Shown here: in pieces, positions 3,989-41,646 of the stretch
Numbering within the stretch: the stretch's first letter is position 1
Layout of the letters: the number at the start of each line of letters is the position of its first letter
Virus record (IMG/VR): IMGVR_UViG_3300048930_000283
Length of the DNA: 42,873 bases
Reading direction: 5' to 3' (one strand)
DNA from: a virus
Taxonomy: Duplodnaviria; Heunggongvirae; Uroviricota; Caudoviricetes
Program-made: the position numbers and the translations under genes
The notes under the pieces: model-generated
What the model was told of the DNA's origin: nothing
Databases searched by the model: none
What the model saw: the letters and a program-made list of their open reading frames with translations, nothing else

Positions 3989-4048
3989 GAGTTACATTAT
4001 ATGTTATTTCTGATTTATTATGGCATATATTTTTATGGTGTTGATACA

Positions 4049-4082
4049 AAAGGAAAATCCCACCGAAGTAGGATTTTCCTCT
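4049..4082. terminator. intrinsic terminator hairpin
   Basis: aggaaaatcc-caccgaagta-ggattttcct flanked by A/T runs. Confidence 0.7.
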
Positions 4083-4188
4083 TTTTTAACCTTTAAGGAA
4101 ATTCACATGATTAACTGTTTTATTGCATCGGGGTAGGAGACCTCCTCGGCTCAAACTATTTATCTAAAGTTACACTAAAGGTCTGAAA

Positions 4189-6656: not shown

Positions 6657-7274
6657 TCATTTTTGTGTCATTCCTCTTTTAAACTCGGGGTTCTGACGAA
6701 TAAAAGAGTTCACATCTTCTTTCAATATGAATTTATTAATTTTTCCGTTTGTTATCCAACATCTATACTCATTAGATTTCTTATTCTTTTTAGATGATGC
6801 TGATCTTCTCATACATGCATCTTTAGTATGAGAAGATATCATTGCTTTCTTGTGAATACTTCTATCTTTGCTAAATGATGCTGGGTTAATATCACCAAAC
6901 CCATTATAACTTCTTTTCTTGTTTGCTTCAACAGCATATTCGTTATATCCACCTCCTAAATTCTCATCAATTAAATTTGCCCATTCTCTTGACTCAACTA
7001 TATTATTTTCTTGACTAAATTTTAATGCAGTCGTTTTGCAATCAGACTCATTTTCAAAGTACCCAAGAATTACTGTTGTTATGTCAAATCCATGTTTTCT
7101 TAAATGGGCGCGCCAATACTTTCCTGAGCCAAGATAGGTGAATGGATCTTTTATAGTTTTACCGAAATACTTTAACCCAGTTTTGTTATGTGTCTTTATG
7201 TATAGATATGTGGGTTTAAACAAAATTAACAACCTTTCCTGAAATACTAACAAATATAAAATATTTATCAGCAA
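6657..7274 (-). CDS. Seg-like GIY-YIG homing endonuclease (true start probably slightly downstream)
   Basis: TYLYIK..KYFGKT..YLGSG; C-terminal WITNG..RG. Confidence 0.85.
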   Translation of the reverse strand: MLINILYLLVFQERLLILFKPTYLYIKTHNKTGLKYFGKTIKDPFTYLGSGKYWRAHLRKHGFDITTVILGYFENESDCKTTALKFSQENNIVESREWANLIDENLGGGYNEYAVEANKKRSYNGFGDINPASFSKDRSIHKKAMISSHTKDACMRRSASSKKNKKSNEYRCWITNGKINKFILKEDVNSFIRQNPEFKRGMTQK

Positions 7275-7284
7275 ATCAAAAAAG

Positions 7285-7361
7285 TGGTGCGGAAGGAGGG
7301 ACTCGAACCCTCAAAACTCGGATTTTAAGTCCGATACGTATGCCAATTCCGTCACATCCGC
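7285..7361 (-). tRNA. tRNA-Leu(TAA), short variable arm
   Basis: cloverleaf; TCGGA-CTTAAAA-TCCGA; CCA. Confidence 0.9.
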
Positions 7362-7384
7362 ATATCCTATTCCACCACTCGGGC
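7362..7384 (-). pseudogene. 5' remnant of a Leu-type tRNA
   Basis: GCCCGAGTGGTGGAATAGG abuts the intact Leu tRNA. Confidence 0.6.
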
Positions 7385-7552
7385 ACAAATTCTTAATGAA
7401 CATTAAAACTGTCTAATTGACAGAGTGTTACTGTTGTTCTCAGCGTTTTCATTTTAAGTCCCATAACCCTGAGAGAAAAGACTTTGTATCTAAATCAACA
7501 ACATGAATCCATTATAACAGTACATGAATAAATGTGGTAAATTACTTGTAAC

Positions 7553-8029
7553 CTATTGTTTTGCAAATGTAAAAAGGTTGATTGTCTCTGTTGAAAACCC
7601 TGTGTCTTTGTTCACCAAAAACAAGTTAGGAACACAATCATCCAACAACCTGCAATTGCATTCCTCCTCAAATCTACACCAGTCAAAGAATGCACGATGT
7701 TTGCCCCAGATAGAAACAACATCATGGACTGACAAGTGAGCTTTCATGTTCCTGCGAATACTATTCACAATCTCTTCAACTGTGACTACTCGTTCAACTT
7801 TTGTCTGCAAGACTGTCTCGATACGTTCTTGCATACTCCAGACAAAGTCTAACTTATCTTTCTCGTTCCAGATAGCAAATGAGAAAATAGTTACAGGGAG
7901 AAGGTTTGCAGAGTTCGCTTCAACGAAACTTGAAGTTTCAATGAACTTTTTAACAGTATTGACGTTGCAGAGAAGTGAGTTGTCCCACGACTTAATTATA
8001 GTTTCTTCTAAATCAAGGAAAAGTTTCAT
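7553..8029 (-). CDS. HAD-like hypothetical protein
   Basis: LFLDLEETI motif-I-like and LLDD motif-IV-like sequences. Confidence 0.6.
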   Translation of the reverse strand: MKLFLDLEETIIKSWDNSLLCNVNTVKKFIETSSFVEANSANLLPVTIFSFAIWNEKDKLDFVWSMQERIETVLQTKVERVVTVEEIVNSIRRNMKAHLSVHDVVSIWGKHRAFFDWCRFEEECNCRLLDDCVPNLFLVNKDTGFSTETINLFTFAKQ

Positions 8030-8042
8030 ATATCTCCTTAAA

Positions 8043-8447
8043 TCATTTGCCTACAACAATGTAAGGTTTCTGGAAATTACCAATATTCACTTCAACGTAC
8101 CAACCAACATCAAAGTAGTCAGTTTGAATATCAGAGTTGTCGTGGTTTCCTGTGTTCAGTGCATCGAACAGCATAGACATGAAGTCCTTGCACTCACCAG
8201 AAAAGTGATCGTGGTACCAGTAAGGATTGACTCGAAGGTAATTAGTCGCAACCCTACCTCCTTCCTTCACAGTCTCATTGTAATTTTTGATGAAGTCCAG
8301 AGTTCCTGACTTGATATTAACTACAATCGTTGAGTGGTTGCGAACTTTGAAGGTAGCTTTGATTTTGTACTTATTAAGTACCTTCTTTGTACCCTCAACG
8401 AGCAACTTCTTCCGTTCCTGATTCATCCAAGCCATTTTAGACTCCAA
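8043..8447 (-). CDS. hypothetical phage protein
   Basis: ORF; DIQTDYFDVGWY. Confidence 0.7.
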   Translation of the reverse strand: MESKMAWMNQERKKLLVEGTKKVLNKYKIKATFKVRNHSTIVVNIKSGTLDFIKNYNETVKEGGRVATNYLRVNPYWYHDHFSGECKDFMSMLFDALNTGNHDNSDIQTDYFDVGWYVEVNIGNFQKPYIVVGK

Positions 8448-8648
8448 TTAGAAATCTTTGAGGTTAAATTTACCACGGGAGGTGAGTTCCATAATGACAT
8501 TAGCCATAATCATAATCAGGTGGTCCTTAGCCTTTGATGTGACCCTACCATCAAGTTTCAGATCACCACCGAATACCTCAACGAATTCCGAAGTACTATA
8601 GGAGGATTTACGACCCAATTTAATACATTCCTTAGCAACGTAACTCAT
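8448..8648 (-). CDS. hypothetical protein
   Basis: AGGAG RBS. Confidence 0.6.
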   Translation of the reverse strand: MSYVAKECIKLGRKSSYSTSEFVEVFGGDLKLDGRVTSKAKDHLIMIMANVIMELTSRGKFNLKDF

Positions 8649-8730
8649 ATCAATCTCCTTTTATTTAGGATGATTAATTATTACATAAATCCAAATTAGT
8701 GTGGAATATTTTTATAATTGCTTGATTATA

Positions 8731-8808
8731 TGGTGCAAATGGTCAGATTCGAACTGACAGTCCCAATCCTCTCATGATTGGAGGTATACCAATTCCCGTC
8801 ACACTTGC
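8731..8808 (-). tRNA. tRNA-Leu(GAG), short variable arm
   Basis: CAATC-ATGAGAG-GATTG; CCA. Confidence 0.8.
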
Positions 8809-8809
8809 G

Positions 8810-8884
8810 TGGTGCCTCTTCCTGAACTTGCATCAGGTTCTATGCTTTACGAGAGCATCGTATCACTATCAATACTTAAGAGGC
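8810..8884 (-). tRNA. tRNA-Thr(CGT)
   Basis: ATGCT-CTCGTAA-AGCAT; CCA. Confidence 0.85.
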
Positions 8885-8891
8885 GAACCAG

Positions 8892-8965
8892 TGGAGCCCT
8901 CGGCCAGAATCGAACTGGCACCAAACCAAGTTTAGGAAACTCGGGGCTACTCCATTAGCGAGGAC
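8892..8965 (-). tRNA. tRNA-Arg(CCT), atypical D region
   Basis: CGAGT-TTCCTAA-ACTTG; CCA; 5' end overlaps the ORF stop at 8955. Confidence 0.75.
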
Positions 8966-9761
8966 TTAGTTCTAAATATGTACCATCACGAGCGCAATAT
9001 TCATTACCAAACTTATACTCACGACCGCATGATGGACAATACTTTTTTCGTTTAACTGTTATGGGTTTAACATCATCTATACCCACCAATTGAATAATCA
9101 TTGAATGAGATTCTGTTTCCAAGGCACCAATATATCCATAGGTGAATTCTTGGTTTGATTCTGATCCCTTAACTGTTATACCAGGATCATTGAATGATGA
9201 TCCACCCCTGAGAACCGAATTCGTGGAGACAGTACCATACCAATTTGAGTCTGGATCTACAGTCCATGGACGTACCCAAGTGTTCTCCCATGGTTTATAT
9301 GGTGGTACGTATGGATAGTAGGGTCTAACAACTTTTTCGTATTGAAATCCAATACGAATTAAACCATCTTCTGAACCAACTCCTCTGTGATCTTCAATCT
9401 CAGATGTTCTTTTAATGAACTTGAACTTGCGACCTTTATACATTGAGTCGCCTAGGAATCGTTCAAGATCAATTGATCCCATGGAGTCAACCAGCAATCC
9501 ATTTTGGGTTACGTTCTCACCATCTATCTCGATGTTTACTATTGCTTTTTGTGTGTTTAAATTTTTGATAAAGATTGAGTATTCTGAGTTCCATGGAAGA
9601 AAAACTTTATCCCCCTGTTCTCTTAATACCTTACCTTTTACCTTGACAGTTGCTACTAACTTATTTGAATACATGCTCATTTTACCTCCTTGTAACGATT
9701 GATGGACTAACAATCCAAAGTTTAAAGTCCATTGGTTAAGCATGATGTAGTTGTTACTCAC
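8955..9761 (-). CDS. conserved hypothetical protein with a C-terminal zinc ribbon (probable start 9680)
   Basis: CPSC..YC at C-terminus; GGAGG RBS before MSMY. Confidence 0.75.
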   Translation of the reverse strand: MSNNYIMLNQWTLNFGLLVHQSLQGGKMSMYSNKLVATVKVKGKVLREQGDKVFLPWNSEYSIFIKNLNTQKAIVNIEIDGENVTQNGLLVDSMGSIDLERFLGDSMYKGRKFKFIKRTSEIEDHRGVGSEDGLIRIGFQYEKVVRPYYPYVPPYKPWENTWVRPWTVDPDSNWYGTVSTNSVLRGGSSFNDPGITVKGSESNQEFTYGYIGALETESHSMIIQLVGIDDVKPITVKRKKYCPSCGREYKFGNEYCARDGTYLELSPR

Positions 9762-9769
9762 TCATTCAT

Positions 9770-9841
9770 TGGTGGGGGCACGGAGAATCGAACTCCGATC
9801 ATACGGAGCCGTAGGTAATTCAGCCATTATACGATACCCCC
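9770..9841 (-). pseudogene. tRNA lacking anticodon-loop positions 34-38 (possibly Lys-derived)
   Basis: intact acceptor, D and T arms and CCA; anticodon arm is TACGG-CT-CCGTA. Confidence 0.8.
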
Positions 9842-9975
9842 AAACTAATACTTATATTCTTTACCACATTTCTTCATTGTCCATTCAATGGCTCGAACGG
9901 GTTGAACTATTGGCCAGAGCATTGCTCTCAGAAACAAAGACCATAGATAATATACTATGGGTGGCCAATTATACA

Positions 9976-10338
9976 TTATTGATTCTCAGTCCACTGTTCA
10001 CCACAATCTGGACAACGGAATTCAATCCAATAGCAATCATCAGACTTAGACCAGTTTCCGGTGTCACCTTTATATGTTTTCAATACCCTCGGATGCTTGC
10101 AACTACCCTGTAATTCAATTAACTTTAGATTGAGTTCTGTTATTTTACCCTCAATCTTACTTCTTTCTCTTTTAATCTTGTTCTGTTCCTTGTGGTCACC
10201 TCGACAACCAGGACACAATCTAACTGTCCTATCAAAATCGTCTGCTGCAATTTCTGAATTACAACACTCGCAGGAACCGAAAACGGGTCGTTTAGTAGAT
10301 CTATTATACTCACTACCATGCTTACAACAGTTCTTCAT
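9976..10338 (-). CDS. Cys-rich zinc-finger hypothetical protein
   Basis: several CxxC motifs and a coiled-coil segment. Confidence 0.7.
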   Translation of the reverse strand: MKNCCKHGSEYNRSTKRPVFGSCECCNSEIAADDFDRTVRLCPGCRGDHKEQNKIKRERSKIEGKITELNLKLIELQGSCKHPRVLKTYKGDTGNWSKSDDCYWIEFRCPDCGEQWTENQ

Positions 10339-10353
10339 AGTAAATCCTTATTC

Positions 10354-10429
10354 TGGAGCTCTGGTGCAGAATTGAACTGCAATTTCTTCATTACCAATGA
10401 AGTGTAATTAACCATTATACGACAAGAGC
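10354..10429 (-). tRNA. tRNA-Thr(GGT)
   Basis: CTTCA-TTGGTAA-TGAAG; CCA. Confidence 0.9.
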
Positions 10430-10432
10430 ATT

Positions 10433-10677
10433 TGGTCATCTAATAGCCGAGGTTCTGTATCAGTACATATGTACCTAATCTATCATTTATCTCAGTTTTT
10501 GTCAAACTGGCACCGAAGTGCTGCCACAACCCGAACCTATAAGCAGAAGTTTCCCAGGTTCTGTTTGTGTTGCTTACTATATCACGGTGGTTTAACGATC
10601 ATTGATCTCCCACTCGACTTCTGCGTAAGCCTCGAACTTCCTCTACCCATAAAGAGCAGCGATAGATTTGATGACCA
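10433..10677 (-). ncRNA. rnpB: RNase P RNA, minimal (245 nt) with a reduced S-domain
   Basis: P1 TGGTCATC/GATGACCA; P4 strands GAGGAAGTTCGAGGC and ACAGAACCTCGGCTA; P5 GCTTAC/GTAAGC; P6-like GCAGAAGT/ACTTCTGC. Confidence 0.85.
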
Positions 10678-10678
10678 T

Positions 10679-10877
10679 TAAGAAATATTCACTTTACTGC
10701 GCAGCAACGATCATTCTTACGTTGCAATCTGGAATGACTTATTATCAGTTACTGTTGGCCTATTCACTGATTGTTTATCATTCGCTTGCCTCACTCAAGC
10801 CTGCTGCAGACAGGTGGTTTGATATTTTAGCAGCAATGTCCTGCGACTTTACGTCAGAACGAGGTGAATATTTCTTA
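10679..10877 (-). ncRNA. unidentified structured ncRNA
   Basis: perfect 14-bp terminal stem; lies between rnpB and tRNA-Val. Confidence 0.5.
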
Positions 10878-10878
10878 G

Positions 10879-10953
10879 TGGTCGATCCTACAGGTTACGC
10901 TCCTGTTACTCTTCCTTGTCACGGAAGTGTGATAGCTACTTCACCAAGGATCG
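10879..10953 (-). tRNA. tRNA-Val(GAC)
   Basis: CTTCC-GTGACAA-GGAAG; CCA. Confidence 0.85.
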
Positions 10954-10955
10954 AA

Positions 10956-11032
10956 TGGTACCCCCAGAGAGATTCGAACTCCCGGCTTCTTCGTTCGAAG
11001 CGAAGCACTCTAGTCCACTGAGTTATGGGGGC
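10956..11032 (-). tRNA. tRNA-Arg(TCG)
   Basis: CTTCG-CTTCGAA-CGAAG; CCA. Confidence 0.9.
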
Positions 11033-11038
11033 AATGTA

Positions 11039-11132
11039 TGGCGGCGGAGGTGGGATTCGAACCCACGAAGCACATTTTCATGGCCTGACATCTTAGCAGG
11101 ATGTTGTCTTAATCCATCTCGACCACTCCACC
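11039..11132 (-). tRNA. tRNA-Ser(GCT)
   Basis: ACATC-CTGCTAA-GATGT; long V arm; CCA. Confidence 0.9.
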
Positions 11133-11138
11133 AAAACT

Positions 11139-11216
11139 TGGTCGTGCATGTTGGAATCAAACCAACCTGTTCTTCTTTATGAGAGAAGCTCGTTGCATCT
11201 TGCTCGACTATGCACG
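11139..11216 (-). tRNA. tRNA-CAT (elongator Met or Ile2)
   Basis: CTTCT-CTCATAA-AGAAG; CCA. Confidence 0.8.
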
Positions 11217-11222
11217 TTTGTG

Positions 11223-11295
11223 CATCCCGTGACGGTGACGATCCGCCTCCTTCGGTTTTGGAGACCGATGTTCTACCAACTTGAACTAACGAGAT
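11223..11295 (-). tRNA. tRNA-Trp(CCA), CCA end not encoded
   Basis: TCGGT-CTCCAAA-ACCGA; 3' end G-CACA. Confidence 0.85.
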
Positions 11296-11296
11296 A

Positions 11297-11632
11297 TTAT
11301 CCTAATACTAGAAATGGAAAAACAAACAAGGCAAACAATAGAAACAAAAATGCCCATCTAAACTTTTTCCAATATTCTTTCTTTTCTATTGAAACACATT
11401 CCTGACACATATAGATGTCTTTATTTCTGTAGTACAATCTACCAGAATTTACTCTAAGTGTTGGTTTAAACCCTTTACCAGAAAATAGACTCTGTACATT
11501 CCCAACAGAAACTGAAGTACCTGAGCGACCAGATTGAATCTCTATTGTTCTGGCCTCACATTCACCAATATCGACAACATTGCCACAATAGTAACATTCA
11601 ACCGCACCAAATTTTGGTTTTCTTCGCCGCAT
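11297..11632 (-). CDS. zinc-binding membrane-anchored hypothetical protein
   Basis: two CxxC motifs; C-terminal TM; GGAGG RBS. Confidence 0.7.
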   Translation of the reverse strand: MRRRKPKFGAVECYYCGNVVDIGECEARTIEIQSGRSGTSVSVGNVQSLFSGKGFKPTLRVNSGRLYYRNKDIYMCQECVSIEKKEYWKKFRWAFLFLLFALFVFPFLVLG

Positions 11633-11659
11633 GATACCTCCATATTATAGTTAGAATTC

Positions 11660-11926
11660 ATGCAGAGGTTTTTGGTAATAAGGAAACCTCTGCGAACCCC
11701 ATCGAAGGTTACGCCGCTAGGCGCAGTTCTCCGAAATATGCACTATCATTTGCATTTATAGTTTTGTCTTCTTTAACTATCACGACTTTCGACCTTGCCG
11801 ATCCCAATATAGTGATTATGACCCAATCGAAACCATGACCGGCCCATCAAAAGGATACCAAATACCCTTTTGGTGGACCGAAAGGGAGTCGAACCCTTGT
11901 CTTGACCCATTTTCCAATATATTGTT
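11660..11926 (-). ncRNA. ssrA: circularly permuted (two-piece) tmRNA; tag ANDSAYFGELRLAA
   Basis: T-arm+CCA piece (ends 11871) precedes GGGCCGG 5' piece (starts 11845); G3.U70; intervening hairpin; tag frame 11753-11709. Confidence 0.9.
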
Positions 11927-12245
11927 TTACTCAGTTACCTGAGTGAATTTTGTTAAAATCCTACCTTTAGTTAATTTAGTTACCATTGTATTACTTGGGT
12001 ACAGATAATAATTCTCACTGCCATCATTGTACCAATGTCTGCCATATGCAGGATTTTTCTTATCCTTTTTGATATCTCTCCACATTGATATTGGAACCCA
12101 TCCGGATGGAATATTATCTTTGTTAAATGATTTTCTTTCACTGCAATCATTCGCATTCTCAGGAATGCACCAAACACACCCATAATGATTGTTGTTGGTG
12201 CCGGTGGCAAGTTCTGAAAGGCGATTCTTTGTTTCTTCTGAAAAC
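11927..12245 (-). pseudogene. C-terminal (NUMOD-like) fragment of a homing endonuclease
   Basis: SEETKNRLS..NNHYG..W, NPAYGRHWYNDG, KGRI; no catalytic domain. Confidence 0.65.
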
Positions 12246-12635
12246 AGAAAACTTCTAAATGAAAGCAATCAAAATAGATTGGCATCAAAAACACATAACT
12301 TTCTAACGAACAACCCGTCGAAAGGAACATCCCATCATAGAACTGGTGCTAAACACACTGAAAGTTCTAGACGAAAAACGTCTGAAAAACTATTAACATT
12401 TTTTAAAGAAAACAAAGGATCGAGGTCTCTTCGAATTCACATTTTCAATGAAAAAAATGAATTACAGTATGAATGTTTTGGAAATTTCAATACCGTTTGT
12501 ATTCAAAATAATCTCCCTCTTTATGCATTAAGAGCTTCATATATAAATCAAGGAAAACCAATTTATACATCATACCCCCCTAAAATTCCTGGTATGGATG
12601 TTTATAAGGGTTGGTATTCCGTTGTTATTAAGTAA
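12235..12635 (+). pseudogene. second homing-endonuclease C-terminal fragment, opposite strand
   Basis: THNF, GAKHTESSRRKTSE (NUMOD3-like), YKGW; no N-terminus. Confidence 0.55.
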
Positions 12636-12686
12636 TAATTGCTTTCACACGGTACTACAAATCACACAAACGCCAGCTTGTGTTAG

Positions 12687-12776
12687 TGGCGGAGAGTGTG
12701 GGACTCGAACCCACGAGACCATATTTCAGGTCCATTGCTTTCCAGGCAATTCTGATAGCCACTACAGGAACTCTCC
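12687..12776 (-). tRNA. tRNA-Ser(GGA)
   Basis: ATTGC-CTGGAAA-GCAAT; long V arm; CCA. Confidence 0.9.
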
Positions 12777-12783
12777 ATTATTT

Positions 12784-12867
12784 TGGAGGCGAATAATAGA
12801 CTCGAACTATCAACCTTTCGGTGGGACGACTTTCGAAGTCGCTTTGTGCCCCGCACACCTACTCGCC
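12784..12867 (-). tRNA. tRNA-Ser(CGA)
   Basis: GCGAC-TTCGAAA-GTCGT; V arm; CCA. Confidence 0.8.
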
Positions 12868-13057
12868 TTTATATCTGGGAAGATTTGAAAACACTTTTCG
12901 GATTTCATATGAGAAACGTATCAAAGTCTCTATCTTCGTCTCTCTGTTTTTCGGGTATCACTGTAGCGATATAGTGGTTAATCCACAAGACTAAGACTTA
13001 CTAGTCCTCTTCCCCAACCCATCCACTCACTAATGAGTGACCTCTCTCTACAATTAT

Positions 13058-13134
13058 TGGTACCCAAGGTCGGACTCGAACCGACAGATTTCTCTTTTTG
13101 AGAGAGATTCCTTTACCAATTTGGACACTTGGGC
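13058..13134 (-). tRNA. tRNA-Leu(CAA), short variable arm
   Basis: TCTCT-CTCAAAA-AGAGA; CCA. Confidence 0.9.
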
Positions 13135-13179
13135 ATTGTTTTCGATGAACCCTCTTCGGAAGATTCATTGAAAACCAAA

Positions 13180-14040
13180 TCACTGAGATTACATGATTTG
13201 CTACAGCCACCTTAGTTCCATTATCCACAGTATTGCGTACCGGGTTCTGAACTTATCCACGGAATCAAATTCCGTCTGACTGCATAACCGCCTTTTTAAC
13301 GTTGTGGCATTTCAACGATCTAGCAACACAACTCTAGTTCTGATCTACTCCCAACCTTGCGGGCTGTTCGGGCTGCTACACCCTAGATGCGACCTCGACT
13401 AAACATCATCAGCCTTGCGAGCCTCAGACGCCAACCTTCATCTTTCGATGGATTGGATTAGGTTATTTTCGTGTTACTATGAGTGCGACTTTGCTTTTTA
13501 GTAAGGTTGGACTTGAACCAACAACGATCTCTTGACATGAGATTGATCTCCTTGATCAACTTATTTGCAACCTACATTTGGAGCGCACTCAACGCTTCGT
13601 AATCTTTTGAATTACGAAATACGCTTCCAAATCTACCTTTCTGCTGCCGCATACTCAGTGAAATTTCTAGACGTCGTCTATGTCATTTCTTACAGACATT
13701 AGCCGAGACCTATTATTTTGAACTAAACCCTTTTCTTGCGGGATCAGAGCTTAATTCTACCCTTTACCTTTATAAGTGATGGATTTGGTACAGCTGTGAG
13801 ATCGGCACCACCCGTCTATGCTTTCGCACTCTCCATACACTGACGTTCCCAGACTAGCTGGCGTCTAAGTGTAAGTTCTTGTCACAGCATCCACTTCCCT
13901 ATTACGACCACCGCATTTGTAAGTGATCGCCCTGTCACCAGGGAGGTTAGGCTTGCATGAATTTCCATTTACATGGCGGGAGTTAAGTAGGATCTGCTCC
14001 CTTTCGCTGACTTGCGCCAGTTTATGTGTCATGCCACTAA
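13180..14040 (-). ncRNA. probable GOLLD large ncRNA (~860 nt)
   Basis: no convincing ORF; many GNRA hairpins (GCAA/GAAA); 3' segments AAAAGGCGG, GTGGATAA and GTAATCTCAG resemble the GOLLD 3' domain as I recall it; tRNA-array context. Confidence 0.7.
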
Positions 14041-14094
14041 TTCTATACTACATTAATACAACTTTAAATACAAATTTACTACTTTACTACTTTA

Positions 14095-14186
14095 TAGACC
14101 TGATGGGATTCGAACCCATGACATAATGTAGTGTCGTTTGACTCCTAGGATAACCACATCTGCTCTGGCCTCTGAGCTACAGGTTT
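14095..14186 (-). ncRNA. tRNA-like RNA with a branched anticodon arm
   Basis: canonical D and T arms; 8-bp anticodon-position stem enclosing 20 nt; no CCA. Confidence 0.65.
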
Positions 14187-14188
14187 AT

Positions 14189-14265
14189 TGGCAACCAGGG
14201 TGGGACTCGCACCCACTTCGGACGGCTTCAAAGACCGTTGCCTCGACTCCTTCGGCATCCTGGCG
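14189..14265 (-). tRNA. tRNA-Gln(TTG)
   Basis: ACGGT-CTTTGAA-GCCGT; CCA. Confidence 0.85.
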
Positions 14266-14274
14266 ATTGTTACT

Positions 14275-14348
14275 TGGAGCAGGTAACGAGAATCGAACTC
14301 GTGCATAAACTTTGGCAAAGTTTTAGGCTACCATTACATCATACCTGC
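14275..14348 (-). tRNA. tRNA-Gly(GCC)
   Basis: AAACT-TTGCCAA-AGTTT; U73; CCA. Confidence 0.9.
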
Positions 14349-14354
14349 ATTCAT

Positions 14355-14430
14355 TGGTACCCATGAGAGGACTCTAACCCCCACCTGATTCTTTAGAAGA
14401 GAATTGCTCTTACAGTTAAGCTACATGGGC
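14355..14430 (-). tRNA. tRNA-Arg(TCT)
   Basis: ATTCT-CTTCTAA-AGAAT; CCA. Confidence 0.9.
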
Positions 14431-14436
14431 ATTGTT

Positions 14437-14591
14437 AGGTCCCACTGGTTGGTGTCGAACCAACATTCCCTAAATGAAGTTTTAACTATCAATCCACATG
14501 CCTTCAGTTAATATAAGGCTGACTCAACTGACAGTGTTACTATCATTCTCTATAGCGTGGTCCGCGGAGACATTCACGCTTTACAGTGAGA
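14437..14591 (-). ncRNA. 155-nt RNA with a tRNA acceptor stem, T arm and a large internal domain
   Basis: TCTCACTG/CAGTGGGA stem; GTTGG-TTCGACA-CCAAC. Confidence 0.6.
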
Positions 14592-14597
14592 TTGTAT

Positions 14598-14688
14598 TGG
14601 AAGCGAGAGCCGGTTCTGCCCACGGCCTATGACCTTTCGGTACCTCTGGGTTATGAGCCCAGTGAGACAACTACTTCTCCATCTCGCT
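14598..14688 (-). tRNA. initiator-like tRNA-Met(CAT) with a long variable arm
   Basis: CTGGG-CTCATAA-CCCAG (three G:C pairs); extra ACC-GAAA-GGT arm; CCA. Confidence 0.75.
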
Positions 14689-14697
14689 ATTATTTCT

Positions 14698-14741
14698 TGG
14701 TCCTCGGCCACGGTAACGATCCGTGCCGTTCCAGCCAATCT
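14698..14741 (-). pseudogene. 3' half of a split tRNA (Ile TAT type)
   Basis: AGATTGGC..CACGG-ATCGTTA-CCGTG-GCCGAGG-A-CCA pairs with the 5' half at 15525-15559. Confidence 0.8.
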
Positions 14742-14744
14742 ATT

Positions 14745-14836
14745 TGGTAGTCCCCCAGGGACTTGAACCCTGACTAACCGCTAATCTGGCGTATCGAGTT
14801 TATAAGGCTCGTCGTGCTACATTACACTAGAGGACT
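14745..14836 (-). tRNA. tRNA-Ile(TAT) with a long variable arm
   Basis: CGAGC-CTTATAA-ACTCG; V arm CGCCAGATTAGCG; CCA. Confidence 0.8.
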
Positions 14837-15489
14837 AATAATTCTATAAATTCTAAATTTATTAAATCATTTGATAATACAACAACTTTAATGTTATTTA
14901 ATTTCATTGCGGAATCTATCTTTTGTTTATCTTTCTTAATCAAGAAATCATTCTTAGGATCAAGAAAAATATTCTGCTTAGGCAAGTAAAAATCAGGAAT
15001 GTAACGCCTTTTCTTTCCATTGTCATCCCAAACATAACCCTGCCTAACACGCTCCCACTCAACATTCAGTTTATCTAGTATTTCAGCAACCCGCACCTCA
15101 TATGAAGATTCTAAAATAACACCTGGTTTATACTCAACATTCTTAGTGTATTTTGAATGTTTTGCCAACCTCTCACATGCGATAATAGAAAGTCTATCTT
15201 TAGTTTCATCAGAATGAACACATCTGGGAAATATATGCCCATTCGCCTCCATTTGTTTCTTTCTCTCATATCCCATTATCCCAAATTTTCTCTGTTGCTC
15301 TGAATTATGGGCCCTGCTTTTATGACCAGAATATCCCTGTGAAGTTTGCAAAATCTTACCGCATAACTCACATTCCCACTTAGTCTTCTTTTCAATAATT
15401 CCCTTGCAACATTTAACATGCCGAACAAAATTAGATGCACTAATTCTTCGCTGACATTTTGAACAATCTTGCTTTTTTATTTGGCTCAT
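14827..15489 (-). CDS. PD-(D/E)xK (EDxHD/TnsA-like) homing endonuclease with zinc fingers
   Basis: ESSYE..RYIPDFYLP..LDPKN; C2H2-like fingers; stop codon inside tRNA-Ile. Confidence 0.8.
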   Translation of the reverse strand: MSQIKKQDCSKCQRRISASNFVRHVKCCKGIIEKKTKWECELCGKILQTSQGYSGHKSRAHNSEQQRKFGIMGYERKKQMEANGHIFPRCVHSDETKDRLSIIACERLAKHSKYTKNVEYKPGVILESSYEVRVAEILDKLNVEWERVRQGYVWDDNGKKRRYIPDFYLPKQNIFLDPKNDFLIKKDKQKIDSAMKLNNIKVVVLSNDLINLEFIELLVL

Positions 15490-15508
15490 TATGCCTCCCT
15501 CATTATAT

Positions 15509-15516
15509 TATTTATA
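15509..15516 (-). promoter_or_regulatory. T4-type late promoter TATAAATA
   Basis: exact motif upstream of the GGAGG RBS; same motif and context at 18270-18277. Confidence 0.65.
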
Positions 15517-15524
15517 TAGGAATC

Positions 15525-15559
15525 ATAAACGCCCTAGCCGCCCACCTGGGCCACCGAGG
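15525..15559 (-). pseudogene. 5' half of a split tRNA, ending at anticodon TAT
   Basis: CCTCGGT..GCCCAGGTGGGC..AGGGCG-TT-TAT. Confidence 0.75.
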
Positions 15560-15641
15560 ATATACGGTCAAGACAATTAAGCCTTACCTTTTACGTTAAA
15601 CACTATGATTAAGATACTTTACTAAAATACACTAATCATAA

Positions 15642-15682
15642 TGGTGGGACTGCAGGATTCGAACCTGCAACGGGACGTTACC
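15642..15682 (-). pseudogene. 3' half of a split tRNA (Thr type)
   Basis: (G)GTAA-CGTCC-CGTT-GCAGG-TTCGAAT-CCTGC-AGTC..ACCA. Confidence 0.7.
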
Positions 15683-16064
15683 TTCGCCTCTTGCCTGAAC
15701 CTTTATTTTTACCTTTAAATGTATCGGTCAAAGAATGACAATTTGAACACAATACTTCTAAATTTATTAGAGAATGGTCGGTACTATCACCGTTTATATG
15801 ATGCAATTCTAAAGGTATTGGTTGGCACATCCATTCTGTCAAATTACATTTCTCACATTTTCTTTGTTTAATACCTTCATCAAATAGTTTGTTTTTTAGT
15901 TTTAAAGATTGAAATGCTGGGTATTTTCCTTCTAAAATATCACTCAATTGTACTTTATTTGGTGGAGATATATTAGTTTTTATACCTTTATTCCATGGTA
16001 TTGAATTTTTCTTTGCTGGCATTTTATTCTCCTTGATTGCACCTATACATCTATTTATGTGCAA
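15678..16064 (-). CDS. HNH homing endonuclease (probable start 16022)
   Basis: PWNKG; CEKC..LELHHINGD..NLEVLCSNCHS. Confidence 0.9.
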   Translation of the reverse strand: MHINRCIGAIKENKMPAKKNSIPWNKGIKTNISPPNKVQLSDILEGKYPAFQSLKLKNKLFDEGIKQRKCEKCNLTEWMCQPIPLELHHINGDSTDHSLINLEVLCSNCHSLTDTFKGKNKGSGKRRR

Positions 16065-16072
16065 TCAAATCT

Positions 16073-16147
16073 TGGTTCCCTGTGAGAATTCCGAGATCTC
16101 GACCTATCGCTTACAAGGCGATTGCTCTGCCACTGAGCTAACAGGGA
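16073..16147 (-). tRNA. tRNA-Thr(TGT)
   Basis: ATCGC-CTTGTAA-GCGAT; CCA. Confidence 0.85.
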
Positions 16148-16159
16148 ATAAATATGTTC

Positions 16160-16179
16160 AACCTTTCAGCCAAGCCAGC
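16160..16179 (-). pseudogene. 5' remnant of a Thr-type tRNA
   Basis: GCTGGCT-TG-GCTG-AAAGGTT. Confidence 0.55.
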
Positions 16180-16187
16180 GTATTCTT

Positions 16188-16261
16188 TGGTCCTTCCTGC
16201 AGGTAATGCTCCTACGTCGCACGATTATCAGTCGTGTGCTCTTCTTTTGAGCTAAGGAAGG
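16188..16261 (-). tRNA. tRNA-Ile(GAT)
   Basis: CACGA-CTGATAA-TCGTG; CCA. Confidence 0.85.
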
Positions 16262-16274
16262 ATTGGTGGTTTTT

Positions 16275-16358
16275 TGGTGGTTCACCACGGTAACGATCCG
16301 TGCGGGCCGAAGCATCTGCTTTACAGGCAGACCATCCTCCTTAGATGTCTAATGAACC
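16275..16358 (-). tRNA. tRNA-Tyr(GTA)
   Basis: TCTGC-CTGTAAA-GCAGA; V arm; CCA. Confidence 0.85.
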
Positions 16359-16504
16359 TCATTCATGCGCTAAATAGTGTGTTCTCCAGGTTTCTCCTAC
16401 TTGTTCTAACAACGAAACAAAACTATGCAACTTATTGGAGTGTGCTAATCTATGACAATTCGGACATAAAATAGTTAAATTATCATGATACTACCCCATG
16501 ATTT

Positions 16505-16578
16505 TGGAGTCTAGTAACAGAATCGCACTGTTCTCTTCGGGTTTGCAATCCGAGGCCCATCTCCTAGACCAACTAGAC
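16505..16578 (-). tRNA. tRNA-Cys(GCA)
   Basis: TCGGA-TTGCAAA-CCCGA; U73; CCA. Confidence 0.85.
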
Positions 16579-16585
16579 AAATTAC

Positions 16586-16673
16586 TGTCGGAAGTGGTAG
16601 GATTTGAACCCACGTGTCCTTTCGGACCATCTGTTTTCAAGACAGCGCCAATAAGCCTCTCTGGCACACTTCC
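16586..16673 (-). tRNA. tRNA-Ser(TGA), 3' end ACA
   Basis: CTGT-CTTGAAA-ACAG; long V arm. Confidence 0.9.
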
Positions 16674-16708
16674 ATAAAACTCTAGCTTACTACCAAGCAA
16701 CCGTATTT

Positions 16709-16790
16709 AGGTGTCGTTGGGTGGGATTTGAACCCACTAACGTCATGACTCGTTATATTCCGTACTGAGAGCGACTCAGCAACAACGACA
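16709..16790 (-). ncRNA. tRNA-like RNA with non-canonical arm order
   Basis: TGTCGTTG/CAACGACA stem; GTGGG-TTCAAAT-CCCAC. Confidence 0.55.
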
Positions 16791-16795
16791 TTGTT

Positions 16796-16872
16796 TGGCG
16801 CCACCAGAGGGAACTCGAACCCTCTCCATTGCTTTGACAGAGCAATATGCAATACCCATACACTATGATGGC
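16796..16872 (-). tRNA. tRNA-Asp(GTC)
   Basis: TTGCT-CTGTCAA-AGCAA; CCA. Confidence 0.85.
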
Positions 16873-17055
16873 AAATTTTTTATATGAAGTCGACAAAAGG
16901 ACTTACGTGTATTGATTCGATCTACTTGGCTTTACCCAGCGTGAGTCTATGTCTCTATCAATGCCTATCCACAATACCCTACTGGTCGATTACAAGGCAC
17001 GCCGTCCGAGCATTATTCTCCATCTACTATTTTGTGGTATCAACCTCATATTTCT

Positions 17056-17138
17056 TGGTACTCTCGGTGGGACTCGAACCCACAATGACAGGATTTTTAA
17101 GACCCTTAGCTGTGCCAATTCGCATTAGTCACGAGAGC
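17056..17138 (-). tRNA. tRNA-Leu(TAA), second copy with extra nt before the D arm
   Basis: AGGGT-CTTAAAA-ATCCT; CCA. Confidence 0.8.
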
Positions 17139-17146
17139 ATTTTGTT

Positions 17147-17223
17147 TGGTGCCCCAGAGGAGACTCGAACTCCTAAAATTTACGTTCTAAGCGTAACACG
17201 TATACCAATTCCGTCACCGGGGC
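17147..17223 (-). tRNA. tRNA-Leu(TAG), short variable arm
   Basis: TTACG-CTTAGAA-CGTAA; CCA. Confidence 0.9.
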
Positions 17224-17229
17224 ATTATT

Positions 17230-17309
17230 TGGCGACACATAAGGGAATCGAACCCTCCTGAACCTCTGCATTGACAGTGCAGCGACCACACCAAGCAGTC
17301 CCATGTGCC
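17230..17309 (-). tRNA. tRNA-Asp(GTC), second copy
   Basis: CTGCA-CTGTCAA-TGCAG; CCA. Confidence 0.85.
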
Positions 17310-17321
17310 ATTATATTATTT

Positions 17322-17396
17322 TGGTCCCACCTGCAGGTAACGCTCCTGCCTCTATGGATTTTCAGTCCATCACTAATCTATCTCAGTTAAAGTGGG
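17322..17396 (-). tRNA. tRNA-Phe(GAA)
   Basis: ATGGA-CTGAAAA-TCCAT; CCA. Confidence 0.85.
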
Positions 17397-17527
17397 TCAA
17401 TACTGTTATAAAACACACCCGAAGTCATATAAATCCTGACAGAAATATACTCGCATGTGTCAGCATACCGACCTAACACCCACTGGGAGGCCGCAACAGA
17501 TGTGGTTTGTAACAGTATTTGGAAAAT

Positions 17528-17560
17528 TGGTCCTCGGTGTCAGACTCGAACTGACATGCT
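17528..17560 (-). pseudogene. 3' half of a split tRNA (probably Val)
   Basis: AGCAT-GTCAG-TTCGAGT-CTGAC-ACCGAGG-A-CCA pairs with the 5' half at 18279-18312. Confidence 0.8.
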
Positions 17561-17564
17561 ATCT

Positions 17565-17637
17565 TGGTGGGTCTTGACGGTTACGCTCCGCCGACTTCCG
17601 CTTGTAAGGAGGATGTTTTACATTAAACTAAAGACCC
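17565..17637 (-). tRNA. tRNA-Val(TAC)
   Basis: TCCTC-CTTACAA-GCGGA; CCA. Confidence 0.85.
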
Positions 17638-18249
17638 AATTATACTCCAAGTTAGTTGGTTTGATGTTAAAACTAGAACCCTAACTGAATTTTGTTCTAC
17701 AACGGCAGATATTTTACGTTGGTCCTTCTTGATTAAGAAGTCATTTTTTGGATCAAGATAAACACCGTAATTTGGCAAGTAAAAGTCGGCAAAGTATTTT
17801 CTCTCTCTGCCATCTAACACATACATTAGATAGGCCGGTCGTATCCAGACAATACCGACTGCATCTAATTCTTGAGCAACTCGAAACTCGTATGAAGACT
17901 CGAGCCAAACTCTGCCTGCGGTAGGAGACTCGTACCACCCATGAGCGTACCTGTTTTTATTCTGACAGCCGAAATTTCTTTCTATAGCAATCTTGCTCAA
18001 CTTCTTTCTAGTCTCTAGTGTAATAGGTATAGATCTTGCTCGGCCTTTAGTTGTTCTCGAAACGCTCTCAGAAATCTTCTTAACCAAATCACTTGTTTCT
18101 TTTGTCAATCCTTTATTCCATGCTAGACAACCTTTTCTATTTCCGCCAGTCGGAACATTGGTTCTCAAAGGATTGTTTCGACATAGCCTTTCATGGTTGC
18201 GGTGAGAATTAGAATTCTTACATTCTTTTTGACAAAACTTACATATCAT
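17623..18249 (-). CDS. PD-(D/E)xK homing endonuclease, paralog of 14827-15489
   Basis: ESSYE..YFADFYLP..LDPKNDFLIKKD; AWNKG; GGAGG RBS; stop codon inside tRNA-Val. Confidence 0.8.
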   Translation of the reverse strand: MICKFCQKECKNSNSHRNHERLCRNNPLRTNVPTGGNRKGCLAWNKGLTKETSDLVKKISESVSRTTKGRARSIPITLETRKKLSKIAIERNFGCQNKNRYAHGWYESPTAGRVWLESSYEFRVAQELDAVGIVWIRPAYLMYVLDGRERKYFADFYLPNYGVYLDPKNDFLIKKDQRKISAVVEQNSVRVLVLTSNQLTWSIIGSLV

Positions 18250-18278
18250 CGTTGTACCCTCCTTTATATTATTTATAA

Positions 18279-18312
18279 AAGGAAGGCGCTTGAACCTCTC
18301 AGCTACCCGAGG
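18279..18312 (-). pseudogene. 5' half of a split tRNA, broken in the anticodon loop
   Basis: CCTCGGG-TA-GCTGAGAGGTTCAAGC-G-CCTTC-CTT followed by TATAAATA. Confidence 0.8.
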
Positions 18313-18493
18313 ATATAAAGTGGAAGAATATGTTCTCATTACGATCTAACTTAGCCGACTCATCTTTCCGATAACCAGGTAGCCTCCCAAGAATGGAGGT
18401 GATCTACGTTTTAGAATAGTAGTCTTTTTTCCTGGCCAGGATAACTGGACGACTATAATGAAAGAGGCTCATAACCACTTCGTTTTACTATTT

Positions 18494-18572
18494 TGGTCTC
18501 AGTGGTAGGATTTGAACCTACGATATCCTGCTCCCAAAGCAGGTGCTATTGACCAGGCTAAGCGACACTGAG
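18494..18572 (-). tRNA. tRNA-Pro(TGG)
   Basis: CCTGC-TTTGGGA-GCAGG; CCA. Confidence 0.9.
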
Positions 18573-18580
18573 TTATTCTG

Positions 18581-18656
18581 TGGTGGACCATGGCGGTACC
18601 GCCCCGCCTCTTCCAAGGTGCAAGCTTGGTGTGCTACCTTCTATCACTAATGGCCC
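18581..18656 (-). tRNA. tRNA-Ala(TGC)
   Basis: CCAAG-CTTGCAC-CTTGG; G3.U70; CCA. Confidence 0.9.
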
Positions 18657-18782
18657 AATTCTGTATTCTTTTTTAGTGTAAATTCGTTGTTTAGGCTTGT
18701 ATGTGGATTTCCCACAGGTTTTACATATTTTCATATCAATTATTTATAACACCCCAAGCAGGCCCATCCCCGTCTAATTTTG

Positions 18783-18968
18783 TATTCACATAAGGCTGTC
18801 GACTGAAACGTGCTTGTTGGATTCGAACCAACGATAGGCCTACATCGGGACCCGTGTTTCCGCTACACCATTGCACTCATTAACCCAAATTTGCGCCAAC
18901 AAAAATGAATGTTAATGCCAATCTAGAGCCACTGCTACATTTGGCGATATAACAGCCTTATGTGAATA
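18783..18968 (-). ncRNA. Y RNA (YrlA)-like RNA: long closing stem plus a tRNA-like domain
   Basis: 17-bp terminal stem; internal D and T arms at 18810-18876. Confidence 0.55.
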
Positions 18969-19170
18969 AATTGTCCCTTCATCATTCTGTCTTCGGAAAT
19001 GAAACTAGAATGGACTCGACGTTTGAATCTACATTCTGACAGACATTAGGACTTTCATTTCATGTTCCTGCCACCTATTATTGGTTCCTTTACCCGACTA
19101 AACGGTCTCACCATACTGTTGCCAGTGGCTATCATAGCGCCCTAGTGGCATGGGGCTCGAGGTATCATAC

Positions 19171-19830
19171 TCATATCGTCATATGAGCTAAGATTCTTCC
19201 TTTTCTATATCCGGTCGGTATTTCATCACTCTTTTTAATTTTCTTATTGAAAATACCGTTAGTTATCCACATAGTACCAAACTGGGAATTACCCACACCA
19301 GTTTGATTTTTAGAATTTTTCCTACTTATTTTTTCCTTAGACAACAAATTGTGCGTTTTTCCTAGAAAAGCAGTTTTACCCGCACTAGAAAACGCCTCGC
19401 TAATTCCATGTCTACTATAAGATATTGTTCCACCCAACGAACCCAATTTGGAATGAAAATTATCACCATATAAGTTTCGAAGTTTCTCATTCGCAAGAAG
19501 TCGTCCCTTACGTGTTCTGGAAATATGCAATTCAGACCCATCATTTAAATAGTCAAACCCACCACTACCGCCTCGTCTTAGATTATAGGTATCATCACGA
19601 GCTAGAAATTCTTCGGTTACGATTTCTGCTTCTCTTGCATACATCGCTTCTTTTGATTCGAAGTACTCTAGGATAGTTTTGGTGAAATTTTCCACACCAT
19701 ATTTCTCGATCGCTGCTAGAATTACTTTTCCAGAGCCCATATAACCATCATTTAAATCTTTGGTTTTATGCACTCCTACGTAAATTTTGCCATTGAGATT
19801 ACATCTCACTTCATATAAGTAATAGAACAT
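19171..19830 (-). CDS. Seg-like GIY-YIG homing endonuclease
   Basis: YYLY..KIYVGVH..YMGSG..YNL; NSQFGTMWITNG. Confidence 0.9.
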   Translation of the reverse strand: MFYYLYEVRCNLNGKIYVGVHKTKDLNDGYMGSGKVILAAIEKYGVENFTKTILEYFESKEAMYAREAEIVTEEFLARDDTYNLRRGGSGGFDYLNDGSELHISRTRKGRLLANEKLRNLYGDNFHSKLGSLGGTISYSRHGISEAFSSAGKTAFLGKTHNLLSKEKISRKNSKNQTGVGNSQFGTMWITNGIFNKKIKKSDEIPTGYRKGRILAHMTI

Positions 19831-19872
19831 TTTGTCCTCCTTACTTATATTTATGCAAAATCTACTTTTGTG

Positions 19873-19950
19873 AGCAGATCGGGAGAGTCGAACTCCTTGC
19901 TTTCGCGTCGGTTTGGAAGACCGATTCCTCTACCCTAAGGAACGACCTGC
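19873..19950 (-). tRNA. tRNA-Gly(TCC) with a small extra arm, CCA not encoded
   Basis: TCGGT-CTTCCAA-ACCGA; GC-GAAA-GC V arm; 3' end T-CACA. Confidence 0.8.
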
Positions 19951-19957
19951 ATATTAC

Positions 19958-20037
19958 TGGGGTGTCTAGTGGGACTCGCACCCACTAAAACTATGATTCA
20001 CAGTCATAGGGCTCGACGACTTTGCTCTTTAGACACC
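19958..20037 (-). tRNA. tRNA-His(GTG)
   Basis: TATGA-CTGTGAA-TCATA; G-1:C73; CCA. Confidence 0.85.
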
Positions 20038-20100
20038 ATTGAATTTGTGGAGGGCTCTCTCCCTCCGCGGACCTTGCTTGAGCATTCAGTATAGGTCTAA

Positions 20101-20130
20101 TCATCTCCTTGCAAGTCATCTCCTTGCAAG
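20101..20130. repeat. 15-bp direct tandem duplication
   Basis: tcatctccttgcaag x2. Confidence 0.9.
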
Positions 20131-20137
20131 TACAATC

Positions 20138-20213
20138 TGGCTCCGGTACCTGGAGTCGAACCAAGATCAAGTGATTAACAGTCACCCCGCACAACCACCG
20201 CGCGTCTACCGGA
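20138..20213 (-). tRNA. tRNA-Asn(GTT)
   Basis: GGTGA-CTGTTAA-TCACT; CCA. Confidence 0.85.
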
Positions 20214-20221
20214 ATTGAATT

Positions 20222-20292
20222 TGGTACCCCAGAGAGGACTCGAACCTCCGTAAGCTTGCTTCGTAGGCATGCCACCATCCTTTGGCTGGGAT
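20222..20292 (-). tRNA. tRNA-Arg(ACG), shortened D region
   Basis: CATGC-CTACGAA-GCAAG; CCA. Confidence 0.75.
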
Positions 20293-20300
20293 ATTAATCT

Positions 20301-20375
20301 TGGTGAACCGTATGGGTTTCGATCCCATCTGCGTAGTTTGAAAGACTACTGACCACACCAGCCGTCCCACGGTTC
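20301..20375 (-). tRNA. tRNA-Glu(TTC)
   Basis: GTAGT-CTTTCAA-ACTAC; CCA. Confidence 0.85.
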
Positions 20376-20380
20376 ATATT

Positions 20381-41643: not shown

Positions 41644-41646
41644 ATG

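Follow-up and report, generated by a model that had tools for sequence, protein, structure and literature searches.

Phage nuclease genes that end inside the adjacent tRNA genes of a tRNA island

Results

Three reading frames end inside tRNA genes

The DNA analysed here is a stretch of 42,873 nucleotides (nt) from the Caudoviricetes record IMGVR_UViG_3300048930_000283, referred to below as the window. It is AT-rich (approximately 38% GC) and phage-like, with nearly every gene on the minus strand, and it carries an island of transfer RNA (tRNA) genes at 7285-20375. Within this island ARAGORN finds 27 tRNA genes and one transfer-messenger RNA (tmRNA), and extra tRNAs are found by Rfam only. The subject of this work is a pair of predicted nuclease genes in the island that both end inside the tRNA gene that follows them, together with a third open reading frame (ORF) that does the same. 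A preliminary description of this DNA had claimed that three ORFs have their stop codons inside downstream tRNAs, and direct reading of the minus-strand sequence confirmed this for all three. The genes and tRNAs concerned are the following:

14827-15489, minus strand: nuclease 1; its TAG stop codon (14829-14827) is nt 8-10 (U8-A9-G10) of tRNA-Ile(UAU)
14745-14836, minus strand: cargo tRNA-Ile(UAU); variable arm long, CCA encoded; found by ARAGORN, Rfam 42.3 bits
17623-18249, minus strand: nuclease 2; its TAA stop codon (17625-17623) is nt 13-15, in the D arm, of tRNA-Val(UAC)
17565-17637 including CCA, minus strand: cargo tRNA-Val(UAC); Rfam 48.6 bits at 17568-17637, overlooked by ARAGORN
8955-9680, minus strand: third ORF; its TAA stop codon (8957-8955) is nt 9-11 of tRNA-Arg(CCU)
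8892-8965, minus strand: atypical tRNA-Arg(CCU); found by ARAGORN, Rfam 16 bits (cut-off 29)

With a threshold of 29 bits for the Rfam tRNA family RF00005, the Ile and Val tRNAs score above and tRNA-Arg(CCU) below. The low score of the latter is due to the absence of the linker of nt 8-9, the D stem following directly after the acceptor stem. Its helices are kept by means of compensatory pairs in four contigs (including L083, L084 and L089; L numbers denote related loci).

The mechanically called ORF of nuclease 2 spans 17623-18339, and beyond 18249 this frame translates the 5' half of a tRNA. Translation most probably begins with the ATG at 18249, located behind an AGGAGG sequence, which gives a protein of 208 amino acids (aa). 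The third ORF, mechanically extended to 9761, probably starts at the ATG at 9680 and encodes 241 aa. Two further ORFs in the window end 0 nt (18573) and 1 nt (11297) ahead of a tRNA. The overlaps exceed what is expected by chance, and the identical overlap recurs at homologous loci.

The nuclease family

Nuclease 1 (220 aa) and nuclease 2 are paralogous (41% identity over 132 aa, E = 3e-28) and consist of one or two N-terminal C2H2-type zinc fingers and a C-terminal PD-(D/E)XK domain. The family has 286 homologues in a large protein database. PHROG matches are to endonuclease and resolvase families, and Pfam provides sub-threshold hints only. In an alignment of 32 sequences, including both window nucleases, the residues E131, D166 (in PDF/ADF), D177 and K179 (in LDPK) are invariant and form the PD-(D/E)XK signature. 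The window nucleases have no GIY-YIG match in Pfam or PHROGs, their fold being PD-(D/E)XK, and the EDxHD motif is absent from the family alignment, in which the metal-binding pattern is D...D-x-K.

The AlphaFold2 (AF2) model of nuclease 1 has a predicted local distance difference test (pLDDT) score of 90.5. Its confident last helix covers residues 212-219 of 220, so that the modelled nuclease fold ends exactly at the start of the tRNA. Structure alignment of residues 112-220 retrieved Vsr, I-Bth0305I, Bax1, TnsA, VRR-NUC and Hjc, with Z scores of 5.7-7.8, the first four at about 7.5-7.8. For the C-terminal domain (residues about 125-220), Vsr (Z 7.8) and I-Bth0305I (Z 7.7) are among the best matches, with a root-mean-square deviation of 2.6-3.2 over 83-87 residues; Z scores below 8 are moderate, and Bax1 (Z 7.8) and two mitoribosome chains (Z 8.1-8.4) equal or exceed those of Vsr and I-Bth0305I. 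A Foldseek search of the PDB gave no match at E 0.001 or better, and a sequence search of solved structures matched the zinc fingers only, with no solved nuclease. The nucleases belong to a family of homing-type endonucleases that is widespread in phages and combines zinc fingers with a Vsr-like PD-(D/E)XK domain, the activity being predicted from sequence and structural model.

The third ORF encodes a phage protein that is conserved (589 homologues, many with PF13240) and carries a zinc ribbon at its C terminus. Judged by its sequence, it is not a recognisable nuclease and belongs to a family of unassigned function.

Conservation of the overlap in related phages

Locus searches in viral contigs with single proteins (P0001, and P0003 for the third ORF) gave no match, but an alignment-based scan of viral contigs succeeded and identified 80 loci. 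Each match was extended to its stop codon and the adjoining DNA analysed with ARAGORN, and with Rfam where no tRNA was found. According to the preliminary description, a tendency of homologues to stop before the tRNA would speak against its reading. No such tendency was observed: the stop codon lies inside the tRNA for 35 of the 43 unique family ORFs that have a same-strand tRNA within 150 nt downstream, and two more stop at +4 and +7 from the tRNA. The overlap offsets lie between -6 and -45 and peak at -10 (11 cases) and at -15 (8 cases), and at least 18 combinations of tRNA type and offset, representing distinct junctions, are present in the family. The stop codons fall in tRNAs of the types Ile(UAU), Ile(GAU), Thr(UGU/GGU/CGU), Gly(UCC), Val(UAC), Leu(UAG), Met, Arg(UCU) and Phe. 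The nuclease clades follow the identity of the tRNA in a tree built from 65 unique sequences.

Seven family members are convergent with a minus-strand tRNA, at distances ranging from a gap of +17 to an overlap of 65 nt, so that tight adjacency is independent of orientation. The overlap of the third ORF with its tRNA is kept in L081-L084 (91-57% identity) and absent in a 45%-identical homologue, which has no tRNA nearby.

Comparison with other array genes and with random entry into tRNAs

Other ORFs of at least 90 aa in the same arrays served for comparison: 15 of 63 overlap the next tRNA, and 21 stop at 0-20 nt from it. The ratio of overlapping to non-overlapping ORFs is 35:8 for the nuclease family and 15:48 for the other ORFs (Fisher p = 4e-9, uncorrected for phylogeny). 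When overlapping ORFs are set against those that stop close to the tRNA without overlapping it, the ratios are 35:2 and 15:21 (p = 7e-7), in counts that ignore kinship. Ten of the other ORFs that overlap a tRNA were sampled and included four HNH or other homing endonucleases, with a dCMP deaminase and PHROGs of unassigned function among the rest; a sample of ten that stop just before the tRNA contained five homing endonucleases. With four overlapping and five non-overlapping cases among these other homing endonucleases, the overlap is no general mark of a nuclease.

We also determined where a reading frame that enters a tRNA would first meet a stop codon, using 495 unique array tRNAs and all three frames. 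The first stop is found within 15 nt in 34% and none is found in 29%, and 42% of these tRNAs have TAG at nt 8-10. The two family modes, -10 and -15, correspond to the two commonest first-stop positions in this set. In the family, 25 of the 35 overlaps are 15 nt or shorter, against the 34% expected. As short overlaps are rarer among random tRNA entries, those observed appear to have been filtered by selection and lie on the most conserved bases of the tRNA.

In tRNA-Ile(UAU), all seven acceptor pairs are kept among eight orthologues, six of them with a compensatory change, and T8-A9-G10 is invariant; over the whole molecule, 18 of 24 pairs show a compensatory change. The overlapped tRNAs are under selection on their structure. 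The covariation of the acceptor stem together with the invariant TAG indicates that the tRNA dictates the sequence of the overlap and that the tail of the protein follows. In the AUA-reading tRNA(UAU) the variable arm is long and has a conserved loop, CAGAUUAG, a form uncommon among Ile tRNAs; this is seen in the window (14745-14836) as well as in L001, L002, L003, L007, L008, L011, L019 and L087-L089.

The nuclease and its tRNA lie within a split resident tRNA

On either side of both nuclease-tRNA pairs, half of another tRNA was identified, and upstream signals are present between the 5' half and the nuclease gene:

15518-15559, minus strand: orphan 5' half of the resident tRNA-Ile(UAU)
14698-14744, minus strand: orphan 3' half of the resident tRNA-Ile(UAU), with variable arm, T arm and acceptor strand GCCGAGG-A-CCA
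18278-18312, minus strand: orphan tRNA 5' half upstream of nuclease 2, within the mechanically extended part of the ORF
17528-17564, minus strand: orphan tRNA 3' half past tRNA-Val, with T arm GTCAG-TTCGAGT-CTGAC followed by ACCGAGG-A-CCA
15509-15516, minus strand: TATAAATA motif, late-promoter-like, before nuclease 1; the ribosome-binding site GAGGGAGG comes next
18270-18277, minus strand: TATAAATA motif ahead of nuclease 2, within a 14-nt junction, TATAAATAATATAA, that is common to the Ile cassette

When 15518-15559 is joined to 14698-14744, ARAGORN reports a tRNA-Ile(tat), and the halves 18278-18312 and 17528-17564, joined by script, are likewise recognised as a tRNA. The intron mode of ARAGORN did not detect the split Ile and Val tRNAs, whereas scripted joining of the flanks detected both. 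The closest orthologous locus (L002) has the same split arrangement, with a fully covarying acceptor stem. At three further loci (L087-L089) a pattern scan identified an intact resident tRNA-Ile(UAU) and no nuclease homologue in the fetched flanks; one of these has a tmRNA tag nearly identical to that of the window. These intact, nuclease-free alleles indicate that nuclease and tRNA together form an inserted unit with presence/absence polymorphism. In the resident tRNA(UAU), whether split or intact, the T loop is odd and reads AUCGU(A/U)A instead of UUCRANY.

Being located outside an intron or intein and polymorphic for presence and absence, the nucleases correspond to free-standing homing endonucleases, with homing predicted on the basis of sequence. 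A search of 7000-21000 that allowed E values of up to 1 gave no group I intron match. One such match, of 61.4 bits, is located at 4043-4228 on the plus strand of a tRNA array from a related phage (L005), approximately 900 nt downstream of a family nuclease.

Both window nucleases have a strong Shine-Dalgarno site behind the TATAAATA motif. No minus-strand terminator-like site was identified anywhere in 14300-18800. Since no terminator separates the ORF from the tRNA, the stop codon must be lost when the tRNA is matured from a transcript common to both.

Two other sources of the overlap were considered and set aside. Completion of the stop codon by polyadenylation, of the mitochondrial type, is ruled out, as the bases before tRNA +1 are TT and ATT and would give no stop codon. 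The split-tRNA context as a general source of overlaps was dropped because orphan halves are nearly absent at 39 homologous loci.

tmRNA and an RNase P RNA-like element

The preliminary description stated that tmRNA and the RNA of RNase P are both encoded in the island. For the tmRNA this is solid: a permuted tmRNA at 11618-11964 (minus strand) matches RF04321 with 85.3 bits, at a cut-off of 47, and the tag assigned by ARAGORN is ANDSAYFGELRLAA, ending in LAA. A permuted tmRNA is also present in the nuclease-free related array L087 (4313-4731, plus strand), with the tag AANDAYFGEVRLAA, close to that of the window.

The second part of the statement is less secure. An element of approximately 236 nt at 10439-10674 (minus strand) matches RF00011 (class B RNase P RNA) in a local search with only 48.2 bits, against a cut-off of 97 (E = 3.5e-12). 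Both P4 strands and J18/2 are aligned and the helices of the catalytic domain are present, and the specificity domain is missing; in a wider search the match to class A was only 14 bits. As it falls below the threshold of the family, we regard the element as a candidate RNase P RNA and a lead for further work. We know of no described phage-encoded RNase P RNA.

Other features of the island and the window

An HNH endonuclease gene at 15678-16064 (minus strand) has its TAA stop codon where it joins the orphan 3' half of a tRNA (approximately 15677-15642) that comprises a T arm and an acceptor strand ending in CCA. At 18573-18748 (minus strand) a 53-aa CxxC ORF lies behind a third TATAAATA motif (18741-18748) and ends flush against tRNA-Pro (18572); it may be a remnant cassette. 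In intron mode, ARAGORN joins a tRNA-Met(CAU) at 14189-14688 (minus strand) over an ORF-less insertion of 404 nt; this is possibly a further split tRNA or what is left of a cassette after decay. A GOLLD RNA (184.5 bits) is located at 13180-13634 (minus strand), with a tRNA-Asp found by ARAGORN at 13498-13566 embedded within it.

With respect to recoding of stop codons, no suppressor tRNA is present in the ARAGORN list for the window. A megablast search of 8000-19000 against a collection of phage records matched only tRNA fragments of 41-49 nt, and no close relative was found. The region 40001-42000 has a GC content of 0.56, compared with approximately 0.38 in the remaining window.

Discussion

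In this work we describe two phage nuclease genes that end inside the neighbouring tRNA genes, and a family in which this organization is common. We favor an explanation in which these nucleases reside in tRNA arrays as a unit fused to a tRNA. The reading frame would enter the acceptor stem for a few codons and end on conserved tRNA nucleotides, either U8-A9-G10 read as TAG, or a TAA, TAG or TGA at nt 13-15. The junction without a spacer would be kept mainly for reasons at the level of the DNA: it may provide extreme linkage of a selfish nuclease gene with the cleavage-resistant tRNA allele beside it, such that repair or recombination could hardly retain the tRNA while losing the nuclease. In addition, it would suit the general compaction of these arrays, and the third ORF, which is not a nuclease, shows the same overlap. 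In this phage, the unit of nuclease and tRNA appears to have been inserted into a resident tRNA of like kind, at its anticodon loop, which left the two orphan halves.

At the level of RNA, a cut by RNase P in the common transcript, made to mature the tRNA, would generate a nuclease mRNA lacking a stop codon, which could then be handled by the tmRNA of the host or of the phage. That such an mRNA arises with each tRNA maturation is expected from the established biology of RNase P and trans-translation. A lower yield of nuclease is a probable consequence, which we take to be secondary or tolerated and not what the design is for. Taken as a whole, we assign a probability of roughly 55% to the explanation in which a mobile nuclease-tRNA unit has been kept without a spacer for linkage and compactness, with the bases of the tRNA supplying the stop codon and the effect on the RNA being secondary.

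Several observations weigh against this explanation. Most homologous loci lack orphan halves, as a join test at 39 loci was convincing in almost none. ARAGORN and Rfam place no tRNA at the stop codon for 19 of the 65 unique family members, although at least four of these (L005, L012, L054 and L078) sit on degenerate tRNAs or on tRNA 3' halves. The comparison of the family with other ORFs is phylogenetically non-independent. Moreover, the rationale of linkage is one that we infer, and selection on the level of expression may act as well.

The preliminary description gave expression the leading role. It proposed that the stop codon in the tRNA evolved as a limiter of a toxic nuclease, with RNase P cleavage leading to a non-stop mRNA and proteolysis of the tmRNA-tagged product, and with tmRNA and RNase P RNA encoded by the phage. 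Much of what this proposal builds on was borne out by our analysis: the overlaps are real and conserved over the nuclease family, and nuclease and tRNA form one unit, as is evident from the clades that track tRNA identity, the split resident tRNA and the nuclease-free alleles. With neither a spacer nor a terminator, the ORF and its tRNA must lie on common transcripts; a tmRNA with a tag ending in LAA and an RNase P-like RNA are encoded by the phage, and the preference for short overlaps would also fit. Besides, a related proposal has been made for SegB and T5 endonucleases (PMC2330249). A purpose-built limiter is, on the other hand, unsupported. ORFs that do not encode nucleases also overlap tRNAs, including a dCMP deaminase, PHROGs without assigned function and the third ORF (P0003), and the other homing endonucleases in the arrays are not enriched among overlapping genes. 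The convergent family members cannot make use of RNase P, and the strong ribosome-binding sites behind the TATAAATA motifs do not fit restrained expression. To our knowledge every host has a tmRNA, which makes a phage copy unnecessary for the scheme, and the RNase P RNA match remains under the cut-off of its family. We therefore consider it unlikely that the overlap evolved for this purpose. Still more doubtful would be the broader claim that a stop codon placed in a tRNA is a general, selected self-limiting mRNA device of selfish array nucleases, and that this lineage runs the circuit independently of its host with its own minimal RNase P RNA and tmRNA.

Neutral compaction could likewise give rise to genes that end in tRNAs. 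If genes are packed flush on tRNAs, a gene that loses its stop codon would continue to the first stop in the tRNA, without selection on linkage or expression. The 15 overlapping and 21 closely spaced genes among the 63 other ORFs, as well as the two window ORFs that stop 0 and 1 nt before a tRNA, are consistent with such packing. So is the lineage-specific overlap of the third ORF, which is not shared by its 45%-identical homologue, and in T5 the genes T5.057 and T5.069 are annotated as overlapping tRNAs. Compaction by itself does not account for the excess in the nuclease family (35:2, compared with 15:21 in other ORFs) over many tRNAs and offsets, nor for the short overlaps, given that random fusion meets a stop within 15 nt in just 34% and no stop in 29%. 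As a full explanation it is doubtful. Finally, it is highly improbable that the overlap is inconsequential because the ORFs are pseudogenes or the tRNAs dead, as the sub-threshold tRNA-Arg(CCU), the T5 tRNA-Gln2 beneath hegD (flagged as a pseudogene) and the relatives on degenerate tRNAs might suggest, since 32 sequences have invariant catalytic residues, the structure of the nuclease is modelled with confidence, the alignments of tRNA-Ile and tRNA-Arg show compensatory changes, and the Val and Ile tRNAs score above the Rfam cut-off.

Gene arrangements of this kind have been described in other systems. In animal mitochondria, protein reading frames run into a same-strand tRNA, excision of the tRNA sets the mRNA's 3' end, and a partial stop codon (T or TA) is completed by polyadenylation. 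The frame entering a same-strand tRNA is alike, but in the window the full stop codon lies within the tRNA, behind TT or ATT before +1.

The closest likeness in organization is found in phage T5 (NC_005859), where the endonuclease genes hegC and hegD lie within a cluster of tRNAs whose strand they share, and have their 3' ends inside the next tRNA. According to the record, the overlap is 14 nt for hegC with tRNA-Ser2 and 23 nt for hegD with tRNA-Gln2, and two more genes, T5.069 and T5.057, overlap tRNAs as well. In contrast to the nucleases described here, the T5 enzymes have an HNH domain instead of PD-(D/E)XK, and no flanking split or replacement tRNA has been described for them.

The T4 SegB protein is a free-standing homing endonuclease encoded between tRNA genes and, like the enzymes predicted here, is associated with tRNA genes, of which it recognises the sequence (PMC2330249). 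It belongs to the GIY-YIG family, cuts tRNA genes at their 3' ends and lacks both a cargo tRNA and a split tRNA. Furthermore, in the T4 record the TAA of segB is located 5 nt before +1 of tRNA-Arg, outside the tRNA. For this gene it has been suggested that cleavage between the last codon and the stop codon during tRNA-Arg maturation may impair the segB mRNA, and the same was proposed for T5 enzymes (PMC2330249). The phage homing endonuclease I-Bth0305I is among the best structural matches to the C-terminal domain of the window nuclease, but it is intron-encoded and has an EDxHD motif, whereas the window family has E...PD...D-P-K. In the literature we found no direct study of a link between RNase P, non-stop mRNA and tmRNA in phages, and no paper on the T5 overlaps.

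Thus, both the arrangement and the idea have precedent in T4 and T5; what is new is the nuclease family, the breadth of its conservation and the link to a cargo tRNA. A like layout, with genes running into tRNAs, is annotated for the unrelated HNH enzymes of T5. The conceptual gain beyond the T4 and T5 literature is modest. For genome annotation the overlaps are a warning, as gene callers that forbid an overlap of coding sequence and tRNA truncate or miss such genes. The analysis brings to light a large, uncharacterised family of zinc-finger/PD-(D/E)XK proteins whose genes are physically fused to tRNA genes over many uncultured phages. This family would offer a natural system to study how a selfish endonuclease is linked to the allele that protects its carrier, and how tRNA processing may throttle the expression of a gene.

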